A stretch of DNA of 56,163 nucleotides, the filler included, from Sphacelaria rigidula (taxonomy: Eukaryota): the NCBI GenBank assembly GCA_964200075.2. It is 7 parts of 7 records of this genome, joined end to end, with 100 filler letters (N's around TTAATTAATTAA, not from the genome) between each part and the next. Parts side by side here need not be neighbours in the genome. Positions count along the whole stretch, not along the records: positions 1 to 7,938 come from CAXNAA020012912.1; 6 more parts are not named here. The stretch is one strand, 5' to 3'. This document shows positions 3,237 through 51,665 of the stretch, piece after piece (within the stretch, counting starts at the first letter, position 1; each line of letters opens with the position of its first letter). The notes below the pieces were generated by a model. The model was not told the DNA's origin. It saw only the letters and a program-made list of their open reading frames with translations, and searched no databases. The translations under genes and the position numbers were made by a program.

Positions 3237-3489
3237 ATCTTTCTACGGTAGCCCCCCACCAAAACCAGCTCAAAATGGTCACGAAGAGAATGGCCATACA
3301 GCGCCTGATGTTTGGTTTCAGGCTGCATGAAGCGCTTCATGTGGGCGACAGTGGTGAGAACGAACCCAAGCGTGGAAACTCCCAGCTGCTTGTTGTGCTT
3401 GGCTTCGATCATTTCGATTAACGTGCAGATTTCCCTCGCCAAACAAGCCCTTTTGGGGGGTGGGAGCGGGGGCTACCGTAAAAAGTGTC
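3237..3489. mobile_element. MITE family B copy (TIR GACACTTTYTACGATAGCCCCCC)
   Basis: Colinear similarity to 39200-39459 (ATGGCCATACAGCGCCTGATGTTTGG...GAACGAACCCAAGCGTGG); ends CTTTCTACGGTAGCCCCCC ... GGGGGCTACCGTAAAAAGTGTC. Confidence 0.75.
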
Positions 3490-3687: not shown

Positions 3688-3959
3688 GCGAGGGCCATTA
3701 AGGGCATATGTAGATTCTATACATTAACTGTGGCACGAAGTATATCTTCGTTCAACATGATTTTTTCGTATGAGGACAATGGAGAGAGCAGCTTGCTGTT
3801 CCAGACCCCAATGTGCTGGTATCAACATTTGCCTACTCCACCCAATCATTGATGCAGCGGATTTTGGATTGTGCAACTCATGGTGAGCGTGGTATCTCGG
3901 ACCGCAATATATGGGCACACAACGCCTTCTACAAATCGAAGATTCATTTTTTTCCACAG

Positions 3960-3974
3960 GCTTTTACAATGGAG
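3960..3974 (+). CDS. Putative 15-nt microexon (AFTME) of the same gene
   Basis: Strong TTTTTTTCCACAG acceptor, GAG/GTTTGG donor, phase 0-0 compatible with flanking exons. Confidence 0.35.
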
Positions 3975-4142
3975 GTTTGGTTTGTAGGAGACGTCGGTGT
4001 CGGCACGTTCAAGTCCGGAACCCTGATTCAGCTACATCACTAGCCATGCACGAGAAATAGAAAATTGGTTATGTGAAGGTGTCCTTGCGCCACCTCCAGA
4101 TAATGGCAGATTTAGAGCGGGCGGTTGAGTTTTTTCAGTAGC

Positions 4143-4386
4143 ATAGGGCCGAAGCTCTTAGGAGCAGGGCGGCGCGTGTACTGCGCCAAGTTGACCGGTG
4201 GCTTAGTGGGAGCACCCCCCACACTGCCTTGAGCCACCGCTCGAGGTGCCTTCCCCACATGACTGCCGCGAGGTGGTCTAGCCGAGCCTTCGGGTAATCG
4301 GCACACGAACTCGTTAGCGATCGCCTGCGATCACTTGCGGGTTAAGTGTTGGGTTGGGTTTCCTCCTTCCATTAAGGTAAAAAAAA
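4143..4386 (+). mobile_element. Retroposed structured RNA (SINE-like), copy 1
   Basis: Similar to 48863-49100; A-rich tail; flanked by the direct repeat CAGTAGC (4136-4142 and 4387-4393); hairpins with GNRA and UUCG loops. Confidence 0.7.
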
Positions 4387-5039
4387 CAGTAGCGTACATG
4401 AGTCACATAACCAGGGGCACTGTCTCTTTACAGAATACAAGCTCAGTCATGAAAGAAGATCATGTAGAAATGACGAGGTGTACTCGAGAAGAGCTCTCCG
4501 GTAGGCGGATCGGTAGTTTATGTGTGTATGTGTGTAGTTAGCCCGGTTTATTACGAAATCGTTGGAATCATCCCCACTGACTGCAAGTACATCTGTTCGT
4601 ACAATTGAAACGAGATCATGCAAAACATTGTCATCGGCAATATGTGGACTCGAATTGAGTACCCTTCGCAGCAGTTAAAGCTTCAATTCTCGTGCTGTAT
4701 GAATAACCAATCATGGGTGCTTGGATACAGGTAACAATAATAAATATATGTAAACATACAAACATGCAATGAAACAATAAATAAACAAAAAACATACACA
4801 GGTACATACCGCTGCGCCCCGATGATGAACCGGCACAAAATTACTTCATTAGGGTGTAAAATAACGCGTTTGATTCCAGCGAGATGCGCTCAGTTTTTCA
4901 TTCAAAAACATTTATCTTATTCCCTTCGTTTGAAAGCGTCGGGACATGAGTGGGAAAAACAGTCTGTTTGTAGTACTGAGTTTGTTTGACGATAGTCGGA
5001 GCAGTACGGGAGGGGAGTGCCGGTGGTCATAACCCAATC

Positions 5040-8789: not shown

Positions 8790-9025
8790 CCTCATTTTCG
8801 AGATCGACCCCATTTTTCAGGATCCACTGCTTTGATTCTTGATGCACGAGAGTATGGGTCAAGGCATCCTCGTTTGCAAGTCCATTCAGGATATCCCTAG
8901 CACACAGGAACAGTAATCCTGGCGTAGTCTCGCATGTTTATAAGTCGTGTTTCGGATGGGATGAAGGGCCCCTAGCAATTCCAATCTTGGAAAATATTTG
9001 TGCACCTCTACCTTAGAACCACTCG
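8790..9025 (-). mobile_element. Diverged MITE family A copy, inverted relative to 14889-15147
   Basis: GATGCAC..A.TATGGGTCA..CAT..GGATATCCC.AGCACA..GTAATCCTGGCGTA..AAAATATTTGTGCACCTCTACC matches the reverse complement of 14889-15110. Confidence 0.65.
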
Positions 9026-9345
9026 CTAGACAAAAAACCCATGTTTGACGGATGAAAATAGGTGAACGACGGCGCTACCTTCCCATGTATTACTGGAAAT
9101 TTAACGGCATCCTCTTGGTAGGCTCTCGTGCAGGAATACTATTTCCAATAACCGACGTTTTGTCAAACCAAGGTGCTATCACTCCTAAACAAAGCACAAA
9201 TTTCCAAGATTGTGTTCTGCAGGGTGCGTTATTTGGAATACCCGGGGTATTTATACGAGTATTACCCGTACCCGACAGTTCACTGAGCTCTGTTTAAGCC
9301 TCTCATACCGGTACCCGACCTTTCTGTGAGTTCAGTTAGGGTAAC

Positions 9346-9703
9346 TGAGAGTCTCTTGAAGGAGGTGCTCTGGACAGAGGGAAATGTTTAGTAACTCTTG
9401 TTGTATTAACGTCTTATACCCTTGACTCAAAAAACATATAGACCGTGCAAGCTCGACGAGCTTTCTCCAAACACCAAGTATGTAAAATGAAAATACCAGG
9501 TACAAATATGAAGTGAGGTAGTAGGAGCGTATAGGACGCATATCCTCATATGTGGCACATCTAGTCATAACACAATATCGACCTCATGATCGGTCCATTA
9601 TCTCTCTGCCCAGAAAATCTAGTACACCGTCAACCTGCACTGGAATGTACCGGAATCAATTTGATTTCATATGCACTAGGACTTAGGTCGGCAATATTAT
9701 AAT
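9346..9703 (-). mobile_element. LTR of the same Copia family, oriented opposite to the downstream element
   Basis: ~357-bp inverted copy of 14203-14559 (e.g. TATTGCCGACCTAAGTCCTAGTG, CCCTCTGTCCAGAGCACCT), ending TCA. Confidence 0.7.
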
Positions 9704-9719
9704 ATTACGCCTTCTTCTG

Positions 9720-10345
9720 CCGGCGTATCCTCAGCGCCGACTAGTGCAGTTCAGGTGCATGCCCCCACAGAGACTTAGTCCTTGCGTTCTCTTCTCGGTG
9801 TATCCCGAGCGCCGACTAATGCAGTTCAGTCGCGTGCGCCCCCTGAGATATTGTTTGCGCGTCCCTTGGTTGGCGTATCCTCAGCGCCGACTAATGCAGT
9901 TCAGTCGCGTGCCCACATTGAGATTTTTTTCCGCGTTTTTTTTCTGTTGGCGTATCCCCAGCGCCGACTCATACAGTTCAGTCGCGTGCACCCACTGAGA
10001 CATTGTTTTCGCGTCCCTCTGTTGGGGTATCCCCAGCGCCGACGAGTGCAGTTCAGTTGCGTGCCCCCAATAAGAATTTGTTTCCGCGTCCCTCTGTCAG
10101 CGTATCCCAGCGCCGACTAGTGCAGTTCAGTCGCCTGCTCCCAGTGAGAGCTTGCCTTCGCGTTCCTCTGTCGGCGTATCCCCAGCGCCGACTAGTGTAG
10201 TTCAGTCGCGCGCCCCCACTGAACGTTTGTCTTCGCGTTCTTCTGTCGGCTCATCCCCAGCGCCGACCGATGCAGTACGGTCACGCGCCCTCACCGAGAC
10301 ATTGTTTTCGCGTTCCTCTGTCGGCGTATCCCCATCGCCGACTAT
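9720..10345. repeat. 75-bp minisatellite, ~8.5 copies, each carrying the hairpin GTCGGCG-TATCCCCAG-CGCCGAC
   Basis: Unit starts at 9722, 9797, 9872, 9949, 10024, 10099, 10173, 10248, 10323. Confidence 0.92.
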
Positions 10346-10619: not shown

Positions 10620-13600
10620 CCCCCGGCCGTCGACATTAACCACTTCCATGCTTCCCTCTGCCATGCTCATGAGACTGTTCTCAGAGCAACTGCCGCCCAA
10701 CAGAGCATCACCCACACGGGATAGTTGGCACCCTGCGCCGGATGTGTGGAGGCAAAAGGGCAATGTGCAGCACGCTCGAGTACTCGGTCGGCTACGGCCC
10801 TCAGCACCATACACCTGGACCTCACGGGACCTCATGTACGGACACTAGGGGATTCACTACACGTGCTCGTCTGCGTGGATAGTAGGCCGCGTCTCATCAC
10901 ACTGTACGGATTGGCGAGGAAGGCACAAGCCTTGGCGAAGGTGGAGGGCTACATGGCCGCCGTCAATCAAATCGGCACTTCCCGGTGCTTCCGTATCGTC
11001 AACGGCGGTGAATTTCGATCGCGGGATTTCATCGGCTTCTGTGACGATGTACGGATTCGCCGCGAGTATACCGCGCCCGATACGCCGAAGCAAAATGCTG
11101 TAGCCGAGAGCGCAATCCGGCGCGTAATGAAGGCTCGCCACGCTGCGCGCTGTGAAATATCGCGTCTCTTCCCCTCTGAAAGCTATACTACCATCCTCAC
11201 TTCGGGTGGCACCTTGGGTCGGCTCTGGTTGGAGTCCGCGGTGTGGGGCGCTGATGGTTTCAATCGCTCCGTGACGATGCCCAATCCCCTACGAGATCTC
11301 CACCAACCTTGCCCCTACTCTCTAGATTATTCTCTTCCTTCAACCATGAGTGATAAGGGTAAACCGCTGCTCCAAGATGGACCCGCAAGCTGTCACTTTC
11401 TATTACCTCGACAACGGCAGCCACCACTCCTCGTCAACGGTGAAAGTCATCAAAGCCGCAACCGGATCCGTCTGATACACCAGCAACGCTGTCTGGACAG
11501 TGCCTCATCCATCACTCCAGCCACCAGCGCCGTCCGACGGAAGGGGGGGGAAAGAAGACGCTTCCGGTTTCGCCGACGCCGCCGACAACCAGCCGCCGTG
11601 ACTACATAGTCCAGTCATGCCGCCGCTTCATCATACTGCCCCATCGTCGCGACCATATCATACCGTCCAATCGCGACCACATCATTCCGTTTCCGCCGAC
11701 GCCGCCGACAATCCGCCGCCGCGACCACATCCTTCAGTCAAGCCGCCGCTACACCATACGGTGCCGCCGTCGCGACCACATCATACTGTCCCACCGCACC
11801 ATATCACATTGTCCTGCCGCCGCCTACTGACCCGTCGACGCTACCATATCATCCCGTCCCGCCGCGATCCATCATACCGTTCCGCCGCGATCACATTATA
11901 CTCTCCTGCCGCCACCGCGACGTACTGTGCCCCTGCCGCTACGCCGTACAGTCGTGCCGCCGCCTCCATTTCCATTCGCCGATGCGCCACGTTATCGACA
12001 TCTAACTTCCACCGCACCGTCGATAACGTCGCCATCTGTCGCCACTCAAAATCAGCAATACCCGTACGCCATACCGCCGACTTCACCACCCTGACAACCG
12101 ACTTCACCGTTCCAACAACCAACTTCACCCCCGATATTCAACGATTTTTTGGCACCATCAACCATTTCAGCAGCTTCATCACCAGCAAGCCATCATCTAC
12201 AAGACCGTTCTCTACCATCACTGCCCGACAGGGTTATCAAGGAACTGAACCTGAGTAATGATCCTCGACAGCCGGGGAGAACGCGATCGAGGACAGCTCA
12301 CCACAAAGCCGAGAAGGAGTGGGGCAATAACATCGCTCTAGTTCATCACGAAAGGGACATTTTTGCGCAACTCGACAAGCCATGCCTTTTATCCGCCCAC
12401 CTCTCGCGGTCCGCTGTAGACGCCGAGACAAGGCGGCAGGATGACAGGAGAGGAGAGCGAGAGGGTATACACTTTCGGGATGCGATGGTGTTGGCGAGGC
12501 GGGAGGATATCGACATAGCAACGGAGGAACAGCGTCCGCCGCACAAATCGGCAAACTTCTTCGTCGCCCAGTGAAGGAGCTGAAGATCCCAAGGGCTTAA
12601 TTTGGAGCCACACTACCGGGGCAGAGAGGAGTGTGGGTGGACTTTCTGACGCGAGAATTTCAAGGCCTTGAGGAAGCGGAGACTATAGATGCGGCAGAAT
12701 AGCAAAAAGTAGCTAATTTCATTCACGCAAAGTGGGTTTACAACTGAAAGCCTGACAGGATTGGGTGGCCAACAAAAGTACAATCGAGACTTGTCGCAAG
12801 GGGGGATATGCAACGGGCAGACATCGACGTTGGTGAATTTCGCGCACCTACAGTGGCGGCTTCGAGTGTACGTTTGCTAATAGCTCATGCCTGTGAGCAG
12901 ATCCGTGTTTGGCAGATTCATGTGTATTCCGACTGATGGGGTACAACAAGGCAGTGATCACATTGGCGGTATATGTGGACGATATATTTGCCGTGGGGAT
13001 GAGGAAAGGTGTGATAGATTTGGTGAGCAAGTGAACACAATGGTTCCAGTTAAGAATCTAGGAGAACTGCGATGGTATTCTGAACTAAATTGCGAGAGAG
13101 AGATTTGGAGAGGGAGACCCTCACCATTTCACAACAGACTTTTGCAGAGGAGCTGGTCGAGGAATATAACATATCATGGGGGAACTAAACACCGATGAGT
13201 GCCAGCGTGAAACTCGAGGTTTTCAATGAGGATGAGCAGATCACGACATTTCCAGTCAGGGAACTAGTAGGGTCGTTGATGCTATTCGAAGATCACTCTA
13301 GACCGCACATTTGCGACCCAGTGAGAGCGGTGGCGAGATATTGCGCGTCACCAAGACTGATCCACCGGTGAACTGCTCCTGGTATACTCGGGTGTGTTAG
13401 GCGAACTAGTACGTTAGGTATTACTTTTCGGAGGGACAGTTTACAAGGCCTTAATTTCCAAGCATATGCCGATGCAGACTACTCAAGTAAGACAGCTGAT
13501 AGACGATCAGTGCCGGGGGACTGGTAAGGGGTGGATGCGTCTCATGGTTCTCAGGGACACAAAAGTGTGTGACGCTGTCAACGTCTGAAGCAGAGTACGT

Positions 13601-14559
13601 CGCAATGACTGGCGTGGTGAAGAAGTTGCTCTTTTTGTGACAGGTGTGGGAATTCATGCTGCCTGAAGTTGGAGAATCGTGAATTTCTGTTTTGGAGGAC
13701 AATCAGGGTACCATTCAGCTGGCACAAAACCTCGTTACGAAAACCAACTCCAAACACATTGATGTAATATACCAATTTGTCAGAGAGCTGGTGAGAAGAA
13801 GGGGGATCTCAATTATTCATGTGGGATCTGAGTACCAGCATGGCGATTTCTTGGCAAAGGTTTTACCAACGGACTCATTTGAATTTCACCGTGATTATGT
13901 CATGAGCATTTTTCATGTTCATGGTAAGGGAACTACGGATATCTTCGTGGTGGATTACGGAAGAAATATGGCTTGTGATTGAATCAAATATAACCCCTCG
14001 AATGCGAAAGTAATATAAGATTACCAGGGCGTATAGTGTAGGGAGTACCTTTCCCTGGACAAGTTTGGTCTTTTTCGATGCTGAGTCTTTCAAGCTTCAC
14101 GGTAATTGTCTCACGAGCATTATTGTTTAATTTATACGGGGAGAGAACTAAGATATTCCCTGCGTGATGATATGACCAGGGCTAAGCTTCAGCAAGGGGG
14201 GCTATAGCATATTGCCGACCTAAGTCCTAGTGAATATGAAATCAAATTGATTCGGGTATATTCCAGTGCAGGTTGACGGTGTACTGGATTTGCGTGGCGG
14301 AGAGATAATGGACCGATCATGAGGCCAATATCGTGTTATGACTAGATGTGCCACATATAAGGCTATCCGTCCTACACACTCCCACTACCTCACTCATATT
14401 TGTATCTCGTATTTGCATTCTACATACTTGGTGTTTGGAGACAGCACGTACAGCTTGCACGGTCTATATGTTATGTGAGTCAAGGGTATAAGACGTTAAT
14501 ACAACCAGAGTTGATGCGCATTTCCCTCTGTCCAGAGCACCTATTTCGAGAAGCTTTCA
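10620..14559 (+). mobile_element. Degenerate, 5'-truncated Ty1/Copia LTR retrotransposon (integrase, RT remnants, RNase H, PPT, 3' LTR)
   Basis: HHCC finger (FHASLCHAH...CAGC), rve core (IHLDLTGP, NGGEF, TAPDTPKQNAVAE), RT remnant (AKWVY), RNase H (AYADADY, LSTSEAEYVAM, EDNQGTIQLA, SKHIDV); IN-RT-RH order; multiple stops and frameshifts. Confidence 0.93.
14203..14559 (+). repeat. 3' LTR of the Copia element
   Basis: Begins just after the polypurine tract AAGGGGGG (14194-14201), has TATA-like GGGTATAAG near 14484, ends TCA; the second copy at 9346-9703 defines the boundaries. Confidence 0.7.
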
Positions 14560-14870
14560 CTTGCTTCAAACCTCCGATATTGGTAGTCAATAGTTCTGTG
14601 AGATTTGTTTGGAAATTTAACCTTACCCGGGGCACGGGTATGCCTTTGTAGGCATACCCGGTCGCGGGCAAGGTTTTCTGAGCAATCTCCTTGTTGTCGT
14701 ACCCGACGAGTTCCATCAGCGGTTCTGTAAGAACTCCATGCCGGTACCCGATAGTTCTGACTGTGACACTTCCATGCCGGTAGTCGACAGTTTCGCACGT
14801 TCTGTAAGAACCACCAAAGAGCTCCACTCTACTGATCATATCCGTACCCCACAGAACACAATCTTGAAAT
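14560..14870 (-). repeat. ACAGAACTTACAGAA/CGGGTACCGG-type repeat; also at 9200-9345 and, inverted, 32985-33200
   Basis: Recurrent GTACCCGA(C/T)AGTTCTG and TTCTGTAAG motifs; terminal motifs TTCCAAGATTGTGTTCTG (9202) and CAGAACACAATCTTGAAA (14852) are inverted. Confidence 0.7.
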
Positions 14871-14888: not shown

Positions 14889-15147
14889 GAGTGATGCTAC
14901 GGTAGGGGTGCCCAAATATTTTCTGAGGTTGGACTTTTTTGGAGCCCTTTATCTAATGCAAAAAGCGACCTATGAAAATATGTGAAAGTACGCCAGGATT
15001 ACAACTCTAATGTGCTGGGGATATCCCGAGTATATTTGTAAACGGGAATGTCCTGACCCATATTTTTGTGCATCTTGAATCGTTAGGAGCCCCCGAACTA
15101 GAGACATAATCTCGCGAAAAAAGTGCATCTCTACCGTAGCATTGCTC
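14889..15147. mobile_element. MITE family A (TIR GAGCAATGCTACGGTAGGGGTGCAC)
   Basis: 25-bp imperfect TIRs; colinear with 36725-36983. Confidence 0.8.
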
Positions 15148-18079: not shown

Positions 18080-18430
18080 GATGCAGTGTTGTCGTCTCAT
18101 CTATTCTGGATGCCGGTCTACACCTTCCGGTATATGTGGGCGCACCAGCCGGGGTCACACAGGAGGAGGGCCAACACAGAAGTTTTTCCTTTTCCGTTAT
18201 TGTTTTGGTACTCCACCTTCCTGCTGCAATGCTTGCCTTTTACTTTTATCGCAAGAGGGGTTCAGCAGTCCCTTTTTCCTCGTCGACTGTGAAGTCAAAT
18301 TTTGTGTACCCACGACATAGTCGCTCTCCACCATTGGGCATGGGAAAAAATCCCAGATCGCTCCGAGATTCGAACCCACGACCCAACCGTCAGAAGGTTT
18401 CGAGGTTGCCAAATGAGCCACCGGGGCGAC
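18080..18430 (-). mobile_element. tRNA-derived SINE in intron 1
   Basis: Minus strand begins GCCCCGGTGGCTCATTTGG (A box) and contains GGTTCGAATCTC (B box); ~340-bp homology to 51326-51665. Confidence 0.8.
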
Positions 18431-18853
18431 AATTTGCAGTACACTTATGTCGTCCACGGTGAATACGTGTGTTCTTTGCGAACAAAAAACATGTGCCCAC
18501 ACTTCACGCACAACACACCAACTAAAGCTGGTCTTCAAGCCGGGGGTGGGTACTGTTCACACTTCGTGATAGCACCGCTAGGGTGACGCATGGTGCCTCA
18601 CTGAACGCTCTTGTCCACTTACGCTCCACGTACCCGCACGCCGTGCAATATAGATGATAGCATCATTCTGTTGTGTGTGCAAAAATCGGCACGGTCTCCA
18701 AGCAGCTTCCAAGTGTTACTTTTCCGAATCTACAGTTGCTTGTGTAACAACCTGCATTCGCTTTTTCGGACACTACAGTACCAGGTGGTAACTCACGACA
18801 TCAGTTTTTGACACAACACGCGTTCCTGTTCCTATCCGGCAATCATGCACCAG

Positions 18854-20806: not shown

Positions 20807-21313
20807 GTGACGCAAGTCGGCTGTTGCAAAGGGTGTGCGAAGGTGGTTGGTAGTCTCTCGCCTTTCGTTGATCGACCCCCTCCTCTACACATGGTGTTGA
20901 CGGGTAGGTGACAATGGTGGTGAGTTATCTCACGAGCGATCTCCGTGCGGCGAATCCGCGCTTGGCCATTGTACTGCTGAAGTACGCTGAAGACAAGTCA
21001 TGCGGGCGGGGCGCATTGAGAGCTTTCTCGCCTCTCAGTGCTTGATAAAGAAAGACCGACGTAGCTGGTGTTTTTATCCGCTCAGATGTCCAAGCGGCGG
21101 AATTTCGTGACACTCAAATAGCTATCGACTCGCGATAATCGTCGCCCCAGTACTAATGCATGTAAAAACGTTGTCTACTCAAACAACAACTACTGTACAG
21201 GAACGCGCTCCCGGATGACTCACAAGATGAAGTTACAGCAACGAGCTCTGATTCATAACCGTCCGCACTGACCGAATGGTCTTATTGTTTTACGAAATTT
21301 CACGAAAATGCAG

Positions 21314-22084
21314 GTGTTGTGGCGGGACGATAGCAGCTCACCTTGGCACTCGCAAGGCGCCGACAAAACACTCGTCCTCTTCGAGAACGGCAAGTTCTTC
21401 GTCCGAGCTCTTGTCGACCATTTCTCTCAAGGCTGTCTCGCCAAAAACATCCAACCGGGCTCCCCTTATCACGAAGAAGTAGTGTCCGGGTTTTGGGGCT
21501 CCCCCAAAAAGGGGCAGCTGGAATTCGTGAATGCCACAAGCCGACCCCTGATATTTCTGGTGATGCCGACGTCTGTGTCCAACACGGCGCTTCACTCCTT
21601 CGACGCCGGGGTATCGGTGGCAGAGGGTGGCGCGCACATTTCCATGCAGAAAGCCGTGAACCAATCGGTCCTTCTCGAGGCGATAAACCCACAGGTGCTA
21701 CAGGTTGGTCCCAGGAACGCCGGTGTTTCCGATGGCGGTCCTCGCGCCGGAGAGAGGTGCCCGTACGCTACGTGCTCTCTATCGAAGTGGACTGGGCGAG
21801 AAGCACGAGTAGCCTTGATAACGGTAGATGGCAACCTTGTTTCTGTGTGGAATTCGCGTATAATCAAACAGAGGACGCGAGTCATCGTGCTCCCTGGTCA
21901 GTTTGTGCAAGGAATGCTACCCCTGCTCGGTGTGCACGGCACGGACGGGCTCGTTGGCGGGGTAGAGTCGTGTGTGAAGATTGCGGTGTCAGTCGTGGGG
22001 AAGCACTTGGGGTGGAATACACTCCAATCGGCGCCGTTCTCAACCATTAAGTCCTCGGCACCTATGGCACGGTATGGGGATTAG
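21314..22084 (+). CDS. ZU5-domain protein, terminal exon (end of ZU5 with HFS motif, then a beta-rich domain)
   Basis: TGCAG acceptor; VLWRDDSSSPW...VRALVDHFSQG; 256 codons to TAG. Confidence 0.8.
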   Translation: MLWRDDSSSPWHSQGADKTLVLFENGKFFVRALVDHFSQGCLAKNIQPGSPYHEEVVSGFWGSPKKGQLEFVNATSRPLIFLVMPTSVSNTALHSFDAGVSVAEGGAHISMQKAVNQSVLLEAINPQVLQVGPRNAGVSDGGPRAGERCPYATCSLSKWTGREARVALITVDGNLVSVWNSRIIKQRTRVIVLPGQFVQGMLPLLGVHGTDGLVGGVESCVKIAVSVVGKHLGWNTLQSAPFSTIKSSAPMARYGD

Positions 22085-36724: not shown

Positions 36725-36983
36725 GAGGGATGCTACGGTAGGAGTGCACAAATATTGTCTGAGGTTAGCATTGTTAGGAGCCTTTTATCTCGTCCAAAAA
36801 ACGACCAATGAAATATGTAAGAGTATACGCCAGAATTACTGTCCTAATGTGCTAGGGATGTCCCGAATCAATTTGCGAACAGGGATGTCTTGACCCATAT
36901 TCTTGTGCATCCTAGAATGTTTAGGAACCCCCGAAGCAGACAAGATTTTGCGCAAAAAGTGCATCCCTACAGTAGCATTGCTC
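36725..36983. mobile_element. MITE family A copy, intronic
   Basis: TIRs GATGCTACGGTAGGAGTGCAC / GTGCATCCCTACAGTAGCATTGCTC; colinear with 14889-15147. Confidence 0.8.
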
Positions 36984-39199: not shown

Positions 39200-39459
39200 G
39201 ACACTTTCTACGATAGCCCCCCCCAAAAAACCAGCCCAAAAGTGTCACGAACAAAATGGCCATACAGCGCCTGATGTTTGGGGTCAGGCTGCATGAAGCG
39301 TCTCATACTGGCAACATTGGCTAGAACGAACCCAAGCGTGGGAATTCAATTCCCATCTGCTTGTTGTGCTCAGCTGTTCCCATTTCGATTTACGTGAAGA
39401 TTTTGCCTCCCAAAACCATGTTTTTTTTTTTTTGGGGGGGGGGCATCGTAAAAAGTGTC
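39200..39459. mobile_element. MITE family B copy
   Basis: TIRs GACACTTTCTACGATAGCCCCC / GGGGGCATCGTAAAAAGTGTC; colinear with 3237-3489. Confidence 0.8.
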
Positions 39460-41649: not shown

Positions 41650-41698
<49 letters not shown>

Positions 41699-47135: not shown

Positions 47136-48862
47136 TTGCTCGAACTCGCAGCAACGGAAAGTGAAAACTTGGGCTCTACACTTGATAGCGTGGCACTAGA
47201 AATTGCCGTTCGCGTACGTTTCCAAGTTCAGCATATACCGTGTTTTGTCGAGTACCCGCACCCGATACCACCTTGCCCACCACTTCAAGTACCTAGAGGT
47301 GGTTGCCCCGTGGTTATCTTGGGAACATTGTGCAGCCAAACCGAGTGTATTGAAGCGTTGCGTGAGTGATTTCCAGAGCTATTTTGATGTCCCGGATGTG
47401 TCAGAATCCCGCAGTAGAACGGAGCTGCCAGGAACGACCTGTATATTCTCTGTCAGGCATTCGGTATGCTTGCCCGCACGTGGCTTTTGCGTGGTGAACT
47501 CGAAGGTTAAATTGGGATGTAAGCCCCGCGCAGGAAATGACACTATTCACAATGATACTCCTTGATTGTTGTTGTTGTTCTTCTTGTCTTCACATTGAAA
47601 AACCGTTCCGATATTTGCGCGGTACATTCGTACTGGGCATCTGATGCGGACGCCTTCCGTGATCACAGGCTAGCAAAAAAACAAAATAGACCCAGATTAA
47701 AACTCACAAAACGTGATGCAAGCAAAAACAGGGATAAATAATAAAGAAGAAAGAGAATACATATGGCTAACCTCAGAAGATCCGGTGCCGCCGGTGGCCC
47801 TTCGGACTTCAGGAGGTGGTACCCGGCTTTCCAACTCGACGCGCGACGCCAAGTAGAAATTAACACAGGGTCCGACTATGGGCGAGACTCAAGGCCCCAA
47901 ATACCGCCAACCAAAAAACTCAGAATCGCAACTTTCCATATTTCGGCCTCTCGAGGGACAGCCATACGTACAAGCCTACCAGGTGTATCAAGAGAAGCAC
48001 TGCATAACATAACGACACCCCTCATCGGGGGGGTTCATCCCCCAACCCCCCCTTCTCTGGACCGTCGTCATTGCTGTGCTTTTTTTGCTTCGTTTGTTTC
48101 CCGTCTCATCGCCCGCAGTCGGCTGGNNNNNNNNNNNNNNNNNNNNNNNNNNNNNNNNNNNNNNNNNNNNTTAATTAATTAANNNNNNNNNNNNNNNNNN
48201 NNNNNNNNNNNNNNNNNNNNNNNNNNGCCGGACCAGGCTCGCAATCAATCACCAAGCGCAAAGCGCCCTGGTATGTCCAGCGAGTCGCATGAAGGGTGAG
48301 CTGCATCCTGCCAAGATCGTTCGGCCGGATGCGTACTGATAATCTTGCGTTTGGATGACAGTCTCCAATGAGTTGCCTCATTTTCTGGTATCGACACTTC
48401 CAGAGACAGCCACAGGTTACACTGCCTCATGGGTGTCTATCCCACAACGTAAACACTGTGCAGTACGATCATCCTCTTTGTGCGGAGTTGAGGTTTTCCC
48501 ACCCTACACGATATGATCAGACTCGACCACCATCATGGATACCGCAAAAAAAACGCGAGCGCACACAAAAAACGGTAACCTGGTTGCCTAGCTCACGCAG
48601 TGAGTGGCGTGTTTTACAGCGTCGTTGCCAACCGACGCCATCCCTCGAAGGGGGTGGGTTGGGAGGGGGCTGATGTGAGCACGACCTGCCCCGATTTCTT
48701 GCGAAACACATCCAAGGCTTGCCCCATCAACTATGAACGTTCAGCACGCGCAGCAGCAACGTTGTCGTTTGCCTGTCGGACAGTGTGCGCCATATTTATG
48801 CGAAGGCAATAAACCCATACATGGACCTTCACAAAACGTTCAACAGGGGCAATGTTATGTGT

Positions 48863-49100
48863 CTAGGGCCGAAGCTGACAAAGAGTAGGGCGGCTCGTGA
48901 ACTGAACCAAGGTGACAGGGGGTTTCAGTGGGTTCAACCCCCACATTGCCTTGAGGGAAGCTTTCCGAACGCTCCAGGCGCCTACCCCACATGACTGCCG
49001 TGAGACGGTCTCGCCGAGCCTCCGGGTAATCGGCAAACGAAGCCGCTTGCGGAGTGAATGTTGGGTAAGATGTCCTCCTTCCTTCAAGGAAAACAAAAAC
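48863..49100 (+). mobile_element. Retroposed structured RNA (SINE-like), copy 2
   Basis: Starts TAGGGCCGAAGCT like copy 1, has the same helices, ends TCCTCCTTCC..AAGG plus an A-rich tail. Confidence 0.7.
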
Positions 49101-49576
49101 ATGCCGTGTGTACGCTCAGGGCTCAAGATCCGACCTCTGGAAGATGACTGATGACAGTATACCGTACCTACAACAGTGTGTAAGCGGTTGAAGGGGGTGA
49201 GACGTGATGGGGAGATACCAAAAAATGTTTTTCAACCCCGTAAAAAAAGGACATACTTGAATAAAAATGAGCAAAAGTGGCCTTTCAAAAGCTCGGGAAT
49301 AAACAAATAAATGCCGCCTTGAGTGTTCTCTCCTGAATACGTAGCTTTCCAAGGGCACACCTGCTCGAATCATTTCTCCGAAACGTTTGCCCACCACCCA
49401 CAGAGGACCGATTACCATCTCAGGCGCATTTTAGATTTTCATACAGGCTGGCCCAGTCACACCCTAACGCTAACCTTAACCTCAACGCCAGCCCCGACGG
49501 GGGCAGATCGTGTACAATCACTTATTTTTTCATAAAACAGAGTGTTCGCGGGCCTGTGTAGAGCATGACACAGTTC

Positions 49577-49762: not shown

Positions 49763-50710
49763 CTGCAACAGATCGTGAAGCACCAATTTTAAATTAAAGA
49801 CAGAACATTAAAACACATTGGTTGATGGATGGATAGATAGATTAGATAGATAGTTAGATAGATAGTCTGTCTCATATAAGCTGATCGCTGAGAGTTCAAG
49901 CAACAACATGAACGTAAAAATATACGAAGGGGTAACGGGGGCGGGGGGGCGGGGGGGCATACTTATTTGTTGCTTGCCTTAGCCGTTTGACCATTGACCA
50001 CGCATCCCTTTCGTGACGGAGCATCGTTCCTACTCCTAATAGACACCTCCAACATTCCGGCGCTCATTACATTCCTTCCATACATTACACAAGAACCTTA
50101 CATAGCTTATCCCCGTCCTGTTTCGCCGTCTGTGGCCACCATTTATCTCCTAGTATAGCCATCGCTTTCTACCTACTGTCTTTTGCATCGAACGATTTCA
50201 TGCCACTTTTGTTCAAAAACAGCAGGATAACTCGACGGCAAGAAGGTGTGTTACTATGTGCATGCTTCTCTTGGTGTGAGAAAAACACTACTCTGTAATC
50301 ACCACCGCGCCCCGGCGTCCATGCGGGTACACCGTTAGCCAGTTCGCGTGGAAGGGTGCGGGTTCGAGTCAGTCGCGACATATTATCGTCACGATCCATT
50401 GTTGCTGTTGCTATTGGTGTCTTCACATTAAAATCTGCTCCAACCTTTACGCCGTGCAATTTCGACTTCCGTACTGGGTATCTGATGCGGACACCTCCCG
50501 TGGTCACAGGCTAACAGCTACCCGAAATAACGTGAGAGGAAATTAACATACAAAAAAAAAACTCACCGGAATCAACACAGACACGATACAATCAAAATAA
50601 TAACACAGCACATCGGGGGGGGGGGGGGGGAGATNNNNNNNNNAAAAAAAAAAAAAAAAACAAAAAAAAAAAAAAACACAACAAAAAAAAAACAAACAAA
50701 AAAAAAAAAA

Positions 50711-50747
<37 letters not shown>

Positions 50748-51059: not shown

Positions 51060-51325
51060 CTGCACTACCAACACAATTCAACAGCACAATTCAGGATCGT
51101 CAGGTGTTTTGATGTGTCGATTATTCTGTGCTCGAGGTTTGTACAGCCAGTGCTTCTTCTTTCACTCACCTCGAATACACGTGAATACGGCTGCATTCGA
51201 AGTGAATCAGCTGATGCGAACAGGCAATCAGTGATTCAATGACTCACTAAGGGGCTAAGCGAGAAGTTGTACGCGGGCGCAAGGCGTGGTACAAGGTGAT
51301 TATCCATGCTACTGCTGCTAGGCCT

Positions 51326-51665
51326 GCCGCCCCGGTTGCTTAGTTGGTAACCTCGAAACCTCCTGACGGTTAGGTCGTGGGTTCAAATCTCGGAGCGATC
51401 TGGGATTTTTCCTCACAGTGGAGAGCGACGATGTCGCGGGTACACAAAACTCGACTTGACGGTCGACGAGGGAGAGGGACTGCTGAACCCCTCTCGTGCT
51501 AAAAAAAAAAACCCAAGCGCAGCAGATTGAAGGTGGAGGTCTAGAAAAAAAAAAAAAAAAAATCTGTGTTGGCCTTGCTCCTGTGTCACCCCGGCTGGTG
51601 CGCCCACATACACCGAGAGGTGTAGGTTGGCGCTCGGAAGAGATGGGATGACAACACACCCTGCT
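51326..51665 (+). mobile_element. tRNA-derived SINE, intronic
   Basis: GCCCCGGTTGCTTAGTTGG (A box), GGTTCAAATCTC (B box); homologous to 18080-18430. Confidence 0.8.

Follow-up and report, generated by a model that had tools for sequence, protein, structure and literature searches.

A very abundant, probably SINE-type retroposon family with a predicted fold in its 3' half in an algal genome

Two related stretches of algal DNA, each closed by an A-rich tail and lying between short direct repeats, raise the question of what kind of unit was inserted at these sites and whether its RNA carries a conserved fold. They were found in a window of 56,163 nucleotides (the whole stretch of DNA that was analysed), which consists of seven pieces of about 8 kb with runs of N between them. 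Since the window is made of separate pieces joined in this way, copy 1 and copy 2 lie on different contigs. Both stretches are very probably insertions of one family of SINE-type non-autonomous retroposons, with a unit of about 235-245 bp and very many copies. The evidence for this reading, the fold of the 3' half and the possible origin of the 5' part are considered below, and the coordinates are collected in Table 1.

Table 1. Positions, along the whole window, of the two retroposon copies, their predicted RNA features and a second short element
Feature	Position	Strand	Remarks
Retroposon copy 1	4144..4386	+	Unit of 243 bp; one surplus base, A4143, precedes the element
Retroposon copy 2	48864..49100	+	Surplus base C48863 precedes; nhmmer match 48864-49098
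Copy 1, left target-site duplication CAGTAGC	4136..4142	+	Read directly; same as 4387-4393
Copy 1, right target-site duplication CAGTAGC	4387..4393	+	Read directly; exact 7 bp
Copy 2, left degenerate target-site duplication	48852..48862	+	8/11 positions as in 49101-49111
Copy 2, right degenerate target-site duplication	49101..49111	+	8/11 positions as in 48852-48862
Copy 1, A8 tail	4379..4386	+	Read directly
Copy 2, A-rich tail	49090-49100	+	AAAACAAAAAC
Weak tRNA-like cloverleaf	4145..4231	+	Relaxed ARAGORN (80%), reported from the element's third base; long variable arm
Acceptor-like arm of cloverleaf	4144-4151/4224-4231	+	Predicted
D-like arm of cloverleaf	4154-4157/4162-4165	+	Predicted
Anticodon-like arm of cloverleaf	4171-4175/4183-4187	+	Predicted; an extra arm and a T-like arm besides
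T-arm-like hairpin, GTGGG / 7-nt loop / CCCAC	4206..4222	+	Copy 2 counterpart at 48928-48944
Hairpin CCTTGAG/CTCGAGG	4227..4246	+	Copy 2 and most family members have a tip longer by 10 nt
Closing helix, 5' strand CCCCACAT	4254..4261	+	Pairs with 4345-4353; RNAalifold helix 8, both copies
Closing helix, 3' strand AGTGTTGGG	4345..4353	+	Paired in both copies
GNRA hairpin, 7 bp, loop GCGA (copy 2: GTGA)	4261..4278	+	Copy 2 at 48993-49010
UNCG hairpin GCCGA-GCC-TTCG-GGT-AA-TCGGC	4281..4302	+	Both copies; copy 2 at 49013-49034
Variable-length hairpin	4309..4343	+	Long in copy 1; CCG-CTTG-CGG in copy 2 and most family members
Small terminal hairpin CCTT/AAGG	4365..4377	+	Adjoins the tail; RNAalifold helix 11, 4 bp, both copies
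Second SINE family	51325-51657 and 18086-18431		tRNA head, B box GGTTCGAATCT

Copies, ends and abundance

The two copies open on the same first base with TAGGGCCGAAGCT and have a common 3' end, TCCTCCTTCC(N5)AAGG, which is followed by a run of A (A8 in copy 1, AAAACAAAAAC in copy 2). Between these ends 173 of the 215 aligned bases (80%) are identical, the 32 gap columns falling at two sites, and the match is far above chance (BLAST E 3e-35; nhmmer E 1e-83 and 3e-81). The flanks of the two copies are unrelated. An earlier reading made from the sequence only, without searches, had described two copies in different contigs with the same 5' start, 3' end and A-rich tail, all of which was confirmed by the sequence and by the BLAST and nhmmer comparisons; the 7-bp direct repeat that it reported around copy 1 proved exact, and the degenerate repeat reported around copy 2 (ATGTTATGTGT and ATGCCGTGTGT) agrees at 8 of 11 positions. 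No third copy was detected in the window with an nhmmer profile of both copies and filters off, and exact-pattern scans of the metagenome_contigs, genome_contigs and viral_contigs collections gave no further copies. Copies of the element lie where genes are few, probably in introns or between genes.

The contigs of DNA runs X1, X3 and X4, together with those of run X8, which is an RNA run by guess only and gave 177 pieces, were aligned to positions 3900-4700 at a likeness of at least 80%. The contig pieces matching the element numbered 3115 in X1, 2608 in X3 and 3008 in X4. A search of sequencing runs with sampled words gave four runs of one organism and an 'algae metagenome' run (61% of the sampled words); none of the runs listed is recorded as RNA, and it is by run label that the source is taken to be an alga. 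The summed word depth in X1 ranged from 164,532 to 606,562 over positions 4143-4385, compared with 64-79 on the flanks, and the ratios in X3 and X4 were similar; in terms of summed contig word depth, the element lies about 2,000-9,800 times above its flanks. The retroposon family is therefore very abundant, with copies that may number in the thousands, a figure to be taken as an order-of-magnitude reading only, as contig word depth is not copy number.

The ends of the unit are equally sharp in the wider family. Matches stop exactly before 4144 in 195 (X1), 154 (X3) and 175 (X4) contigs, with an upstream agreement of 0.33-0.34, and behind 4386 in 55-66 contigs in X3 and X4, where the consensus agreement is 0.35-0.36 and the loose-end consensus begins with further A letters and is random thereafter. 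Since the agreement of the loose ends reaches only 0.33-0.36, the flanks of the family copies are unrelated to one another. Depth along the element is roughly level, the 5' bin and the 3' bin lying within about two-fold, which indicates a unit with fixed ends.

Within these ends the family varies in length at 4194-4253 and at 4310-4343, where many joints and replaced stretches occur. In both of these parts the loose-end consensus is like copy 2, so that copy 1 represents a minority form. At 4215, 4247, 4314 and 4342, too, copy 1 departs from the family, another base being present in 94-97% of the aligned depth. That several subfamilies exist, differing in the length of two hairpins, fits a self-propagating family whose source copies have changed.

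A unit of 243 bp with fixed ends, an A-rich tail and a flanking duplication, highly abundant in three DNA runs, points to a SINE-type retroposon, in agreement with the earlier proposal of a SINE or retroposed short RNA. When compared with the criteria of SINEBase, the unit is short (<700 bp) and non-coding, has fixed ends and contains no domain-bearing ORF; its copies are many and dispersed (between 2,608 and 3,115 contig pieces from each DNA run); and it bears LINE-type marks, namely A8 with an exact repeat of 7 bp in copy 1 and an A-rich tail with a repeat of 8/11 in copy 2. The SINE label is used here on the grounds of size, ends, abundance, tail and duplication; in the strict sense, with a pol III head, the element is at most a putative SINE.

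The hairpins of the 3' half

The stretch best conserved between the two copies is 4250-4309, with 53 of 60 bases identical against 173 of 215 overall, and the best conserved stretch in the family is 4278-4304, where the depth bin is the highest in each of the four runs. The predicted fold is concentrated in the same half of the element. The 3' domain folds better than its shuffles in both copies (copy 1, 4250-4358, z -2.87, with 2 of 200 shuffles as good; copy 2, 48981-49072, z -4.66, with none of 200 as good), whereas the 5' halves do not (z -1.56 in copy 1 and +0.72 in copy 2). For the element as a whole the values are z -2.84 in copy 1 and -1.27 in copy 2.

Two small capped hairpins are the best conserved parts. 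As had been claimed from the sequence, the GNRA loop and the C-UNCG-G loop are preserved in both copies, and the family variants are compatible with both hairpins. The family variant table gives marginal frequencies only, and what follows covers the variants listed there. In the GNRA stem the listed variants C4263>T, T4264>C and T4274>C keep the pairing, and in its loop C4269>A and G4270>A leave a GNRA sequence, the loop G and A varying in less than 4% of the depth; the copy 2 stem contains one C.A mismatch. The sole variant of at least 5% listed in the UNCG hairpin is T4290>C, by which the loop changes from UUCG to UCCG. The listed variants in the two capped hairpins fit selection on source copies without proving it; by our own count, 9 of the 14 possible transitions in the GNRA stem would be tolerated anyway.

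The remaining helices are less uniform. The 4309-4343 hairpin contains a gap of 20 columns between the copies, and 170 (X1), 146 (X3) and 157 (X4) contigs have loose ends behind 4310 whose consensus is like copy 2. Before 4238 the consensus of the loose ends likewise resembles copy 2, in which the CCTTGAG/CTCGAGG hairpin has its longer tip. The long helices of copy 1 are broken by most of the family variants listed (8/10 in 4196-4239 and 5/8 in 4309-4342). The change from GGCGC/GCGCC to GGCTC/GAACC, which had been listed among the structure-preserving differences, includes one compensatory change and one new C.A mismatch. The pair CCCACACT/AGTGTTGGG, described as compensatory, is ambiguous because CCCCACA is present twice (4217-4223 and 4254-4260), and RNAalifold uses the second occurrence, where the change is one-sided. 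The proposed pseudoknot between AGTGGG and CCCCAC gives way to a plain local hairpin of 5 bp with a 7-nt loop.

The larger claim of a covarying multi-helix structure is thus borne out in part: the two small hairpins and the 3' junction domain look conserved, and the remainder of the element does not. When the two copies are aligned, none of the 60 consensus pairs is lost and three show double changes, a level equalled by 77 of 500 shuffles; two sequences only are without statistical power for covariation. In three replaced stretches, judged by eye, the stem that encloses a conserved TAGTGGGAGC-like loop is retained in different letters (for example GGGGGTT/AACCCCC against GAGGGAT/ATCCCTC), and the compensation in these stems is real, if anecdotal. 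Even the topology predicted for the 3' domain is provisional, because an alternative fold that pairs CCGYGAG with CUUGCGG competes with it and is both the MFE structure of copy 2 and the choice of RNAalifold.

It seems unlikely that the body is a new selected RNA module, either the descendant of an undescribed ncRNA or a fold by which the reverse transcriptase of an algal LINE recognises its template, in a SINE class whose head derives from neither tRNA, 7SL nor 5S. Such a module would take the form of a four-way junction with one closing helix and three hairpins carrying GNRA, UUCG and CUUG-type caps.

Searches for known RNAs bear on the origin of the whole element. Rfam at gathering scores gave no match anywhere in the window, and at E up to 10 each copy and each 5' part returned matches at chance level only (ArcZ, DUF805b, MIAT, PVT1, HgcG and pieces of lncRNAs). 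In line with the sequence-only reading, which could not match the element to tRNA, 5S, 7SL, snRNAs, hammerhead or HDV, the Rfam matches at E up to 10 include no tRNA, 5S, SRP RNA, snRNA or ribozyme family. Two short stretches resembling, by eye, the internal control region of 5S rRNA were considered and set aside, as their spacing is unfit and the Rfam 5S model is silent. Five stretches of the element gave no match in a full-text literature search.

These results leave some room for the copies being retropseudogenes of an abundant, structured cellular ncRNA of an undescribed class, with a function of its own and with the dispersed copies as by-products. The silence of Rfam would agree with this, as would a compact 3' junction with three capped hairpins that folds better than shuffles in both copies and the retention of GNRA and UNCG loop identity across the family variants. 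The abundance of the element and its several subfamilies with length variants, however, fit a self-propagating family; no source gene is visible; and the structured part is the 3' half beside the tail, which is, in the portions of the two SINE accounts on which this point draws (PMC3472496, PMC3531059), the usual place in a SINE for modules of LINE recognition. An origin of this kind is accordingly rated improbable.

The 5' end and a possible tRNA-derived head

The 5' end bears most directly on whether the copies are separate elements at all. If they were the 3' ends of 5'-truncated LINEs, or fragments of a LINE 3' UTR, staggered 5' ends and common upstream sequence would be expected. A depth about twice as great at the 3' end as at the 5' end and the good conservation of the element's 3' end could be read in this way, but both window copies begin at the same base, and 154-195 contigs per DNA run stop exactly at 4144 with unrelated sequence upstream. 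That the 5' ends gather at a single base speaks against LINE tails, which we regard as highly improbable.

There is hardly any chance that the ends of the element's RNA are defined by a self-cleaving ribozyme, HDV-like at the 5' end or of another class. In favour of one are the sharp 5' end without a clear promoter, and the 66% of X8 matches that run into unlike sequence as read-through transcripts would (a hint at the level of a guess); against it are the lack of any Rfam ribozyme family at E up to 10 in either copy, of any hit in either copy to a loose, home-made HDV-like 5' descriptor that occurs at least once in 25 of 100 shuffles, and of hammerhead core motifs by eye, results which also speak against the catalytic RNA domain suggested earlier.

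Taking the element again as a SINE-type unit, its first 88 bases show some resemblance to a tRNA. Besides the cloverleaf found with ARAGORN at the relaxed setting of 80% (Table 1), 7 of the first eight bases of the element pair, in each copy, with the eight bases that follow the T-arm-like hairpin after a one-base gap. Forcing the five-arm cloverleaf on 4144-4231 gives -33.4 kcal/mol against an MFE of -33.7 kcal/mol, a cost of 0.3. The same setting also reports a second cloverleaf at 4256-4349. Of 1000 dinucleotide-shuffled versions of the element, 108 had any ARAGORN hit, 4 had two hits and 3 had a hit starting at nucleotides 1-6; across the 56-kb window the 80% setting returned 30 hits.

The B-box consensus is GGTTCGANNCC. 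The T-arm-like hairpin of copy 2 holds GGTTCAACCCC, one mismatch from this consensus, and the consensus strings of the family's loose ends at the B-box-like site are, by eye, likewise one mismatch off. An exact A-box match at 4199-4209 is present in copy 1 only. It coincides in part with the B-box-like site, and in about three-quarters of the aligned contigs it is abolished by variants at 4199 and 4202. A canonical, properly spaced pair of A and B boxes is absent from both copies by pattern search.

The cloverleaf stays below the thresholds of the tRNA finders. ARAGORN at its default setting found no tRNA in the window, and neither the default nor the 90% setting gave a hit on the element; at 80% there was no hit in copy 2. 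With E values up to 10 allowed, the Rfam tRNA model matched neither copy, nor their 5' parts. A point of reference is provided by a second SINE family of the window: its tRNA-derived heads are clear and are detected by ARAGORN at 80%, and its head scores 13.3 bits (E 2.3) with the Rfam tRNA model, the same model that is silent on the present element. Both are short interspersed elements of the same genome, but they have only a weak similarity of 16 bases. A decayed tRNA head is possible for the present element because of the weak cloverleaf and the B-box-like loop in its 5' 88 bases, and the chances that these bases are a badly decayed tRNA-derived head with a remnant of a pol III promoter are put at about even.

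Proposed propagation and comparison with known systems

From these observations a plausible cycle of propagation may be outlined. A source copy would be transcribed into a discrete RNA beginning at TAGGGCC, which the reverse transcriptase and endonuclease of a LINE from another part of the genome could then take up. Target-primed reverse transcription from the A-rich 3' end into a nicked target would follow, and the insertion would leave the run of A and a target-site duplication of 7-11 bp. The conserved 3' half, with its closing helix, GNRA, UUCG and variable hairpins and terminal hairpin, may be what selection on source copies has retained; it would most likely be recognised by the partner enzyme or by an RNA-stabilising protein. 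Some LINE may have the element's tail in common; none of the 138 ORFs of at least 97 aa in the window contains a LINE reverse transcriptase or endonuclease domain.

Other observations on the window may be recorded here. The nearest protein clusters of an integrase ORF give a weak hint of stramenopiles, not of green algae, and the ORF at 21272-22081 gave no relatives in one protein search restricted to longer proteins. A short part of the dinoflagellate spliced leader had no match in the window.

This is a mobile element of an ordinary, known kind and, as far as can be judged without Repbase, Dfam or the whole genome, a new member of that kind. It opens no new kind of biology, the tidy 3' RNA domain and the head being its points of note. 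If the reading is right, the family is among the most abundant repeats of the algal genome, which matters for repeat masking and gene annotation, and its insertions would be useful as polymorphism markers. The conserved capped hairpins would furthermore offer a concrete candidate for what the enzyme of an algal LINE recognises in its template RNA.

The general layout of SINEs given in the SINEBase account (head, body and tail; PMC3531059) is matched by the element. In the part of that account that deals with family statistics, the median SINE length is 236 nt and the commonest layout comprises 41% of families (PMC3531059). The present element is like the commonest layout in its length of 243 bp, close to this median, in its high copy number, discrete 5' end, A-rich tail and short duplication, and in the weak cloverleaf and B-box-like loop of its 5' 88 bases. 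It is unlike that layout in that its head is missed by the Rfam tRNA model and by default ARAGORN and has no spaced A and B boxes. As far as the 2012 account extends, SINEBase lists no SINE for the group of algae concerned (PMC3531059).

Among algae, the passages of PMC12477816 on the repeats of the brown alga Ectocarpus describe as the most abundant repeat a short LINE-dependent element whose 5' origin is undetermined. This element, RTEX-N1_Ec32, is about 600 bp long and has its 3' end in common with RTE-X LINEs (PMC12477816). The present family resembles it, so far as it is described in those passages, in being a very abundant, short and non-autonomous algal retroposon of undetermined 5' origin, and differs in its length of 243 bp, in ending with a run of A and in having no LINE partner in the window. 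Four stretches of the element had no match in the supplements of PMC12477816, although the TE library may not be among those files.

A further comparison is offered by SINEX-3_CR and L1-1_CR of Chlamydomonas, a pair of the stringent type in which both members end in poly(A) (PMC3472496). The partner LINE is known there, whereas the window contains no LINE for the present element and the nearby integrase ORF points, weakly, to stramenopiles and not to green algae. In stringent-type pairs, as characterised in the relevant portion of that source, a 3' stem-loop beside the poly(A) tail is common to the SINE and the LINE (PMC3472496). The present element is like the Chlamydomonas SINE, to the extent that the source describes it, in having a conserved, structured 3' region directly before a poly(A)-like tail, with variation in its hairpins that is compensatory or limited to the loops.

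Sequence variants within the main element

Several variants in the 4268-4355 stretch, which lies in the 3' domain of the first copy of the ~240-bp SINE-type retroposon, were far commoner in X8, whose assignment as an RNA run is a guess, than in the DNA runs. Examples from the contig data are T>C at 4295, at 19% in X8 vs <1% in the DNA runs, and A>G at 4330, at 84% vs 4%. Such a shift would be consistent with X8 being dominated by a small number of specific copies, although, because the data are contigs, it is a hint at most.

DNA transposon-like repeats

The termini of the ~258-bp repeat are mutually inverted (..CTACGRTAGCCCCCC.. vs ..GGGGG..CGTAAAAAGTGT), giving the repeat the appearance of a DNA transposon of the MITE type. 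The three-copy repeat of ~260 bp is likewise MITE-like, with inverted termini (GATGCTACGGTAGG.. vs ..CTACMGTAGCAT) in both full-length copies and the far end missing from the minus-strand copy. The inverted repeats, tandem array and ORF with a weak integrase-core match between 9343 and 14562 together probably represent a decayed large transposon.

Other features of the window
Feature	Position (strand)	Details
Repeat, ~258 bp	39204-39459; 3239-3489	78% identity
Repeat, ~260 bp, three copies	36725-36983; 14889-15147; 8841-9024 (-)	75-80% identity
Inverted repeat pair, 355 bp	9343-9697; 14209-14562	88% identity
Tandem array, 75-bp unit, 8.4 units	9708-10344	Inside the 355-bp pair
ORF, weak integrase-core match	10725-11606	E 1e-3, below Pfam cut-off; inside the 355-bp pair
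Open frame, 776 aa	51737-54064 (-)	Mostly low-complexity
Homopolymer run, C47	7882-7928	
Homopolymer run, G48	41650-41697	
Homopolymer run, A-rich then G35	50644-50746	
Interspersed family, ~350 bp	51325-51657 (+); 18086-18431 (-)	80% identity between copies

Putative metal-transport exon and homopolymer runs

Close to the start of the 776-aa open frame lies a zinc-finger-like stretch of the WRKY19 type, and towards its end there is a heavy-metal-associated domain. The frame probably corresponds to exon 1 of a gene for metal transport. Some of the long homopolymer runs adjoin piece ends or N gaps.

A second, tRNA-headed SINE family

The head of the ~350-bp interspersed family is clearly tRNA-derived. 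It contains an A-box-like TTGCTTAGTTGG, with GGTTCGAATCT or GGTTCAAATCT as the B box of the family, and a 121-nt search with the Rfam tRNA model gave it a score of 13.3 bits (E 2.3). A-runs are also found internally. The same genome that carries the main element also harbours a canonical tRNA-SINE, represented by this family.
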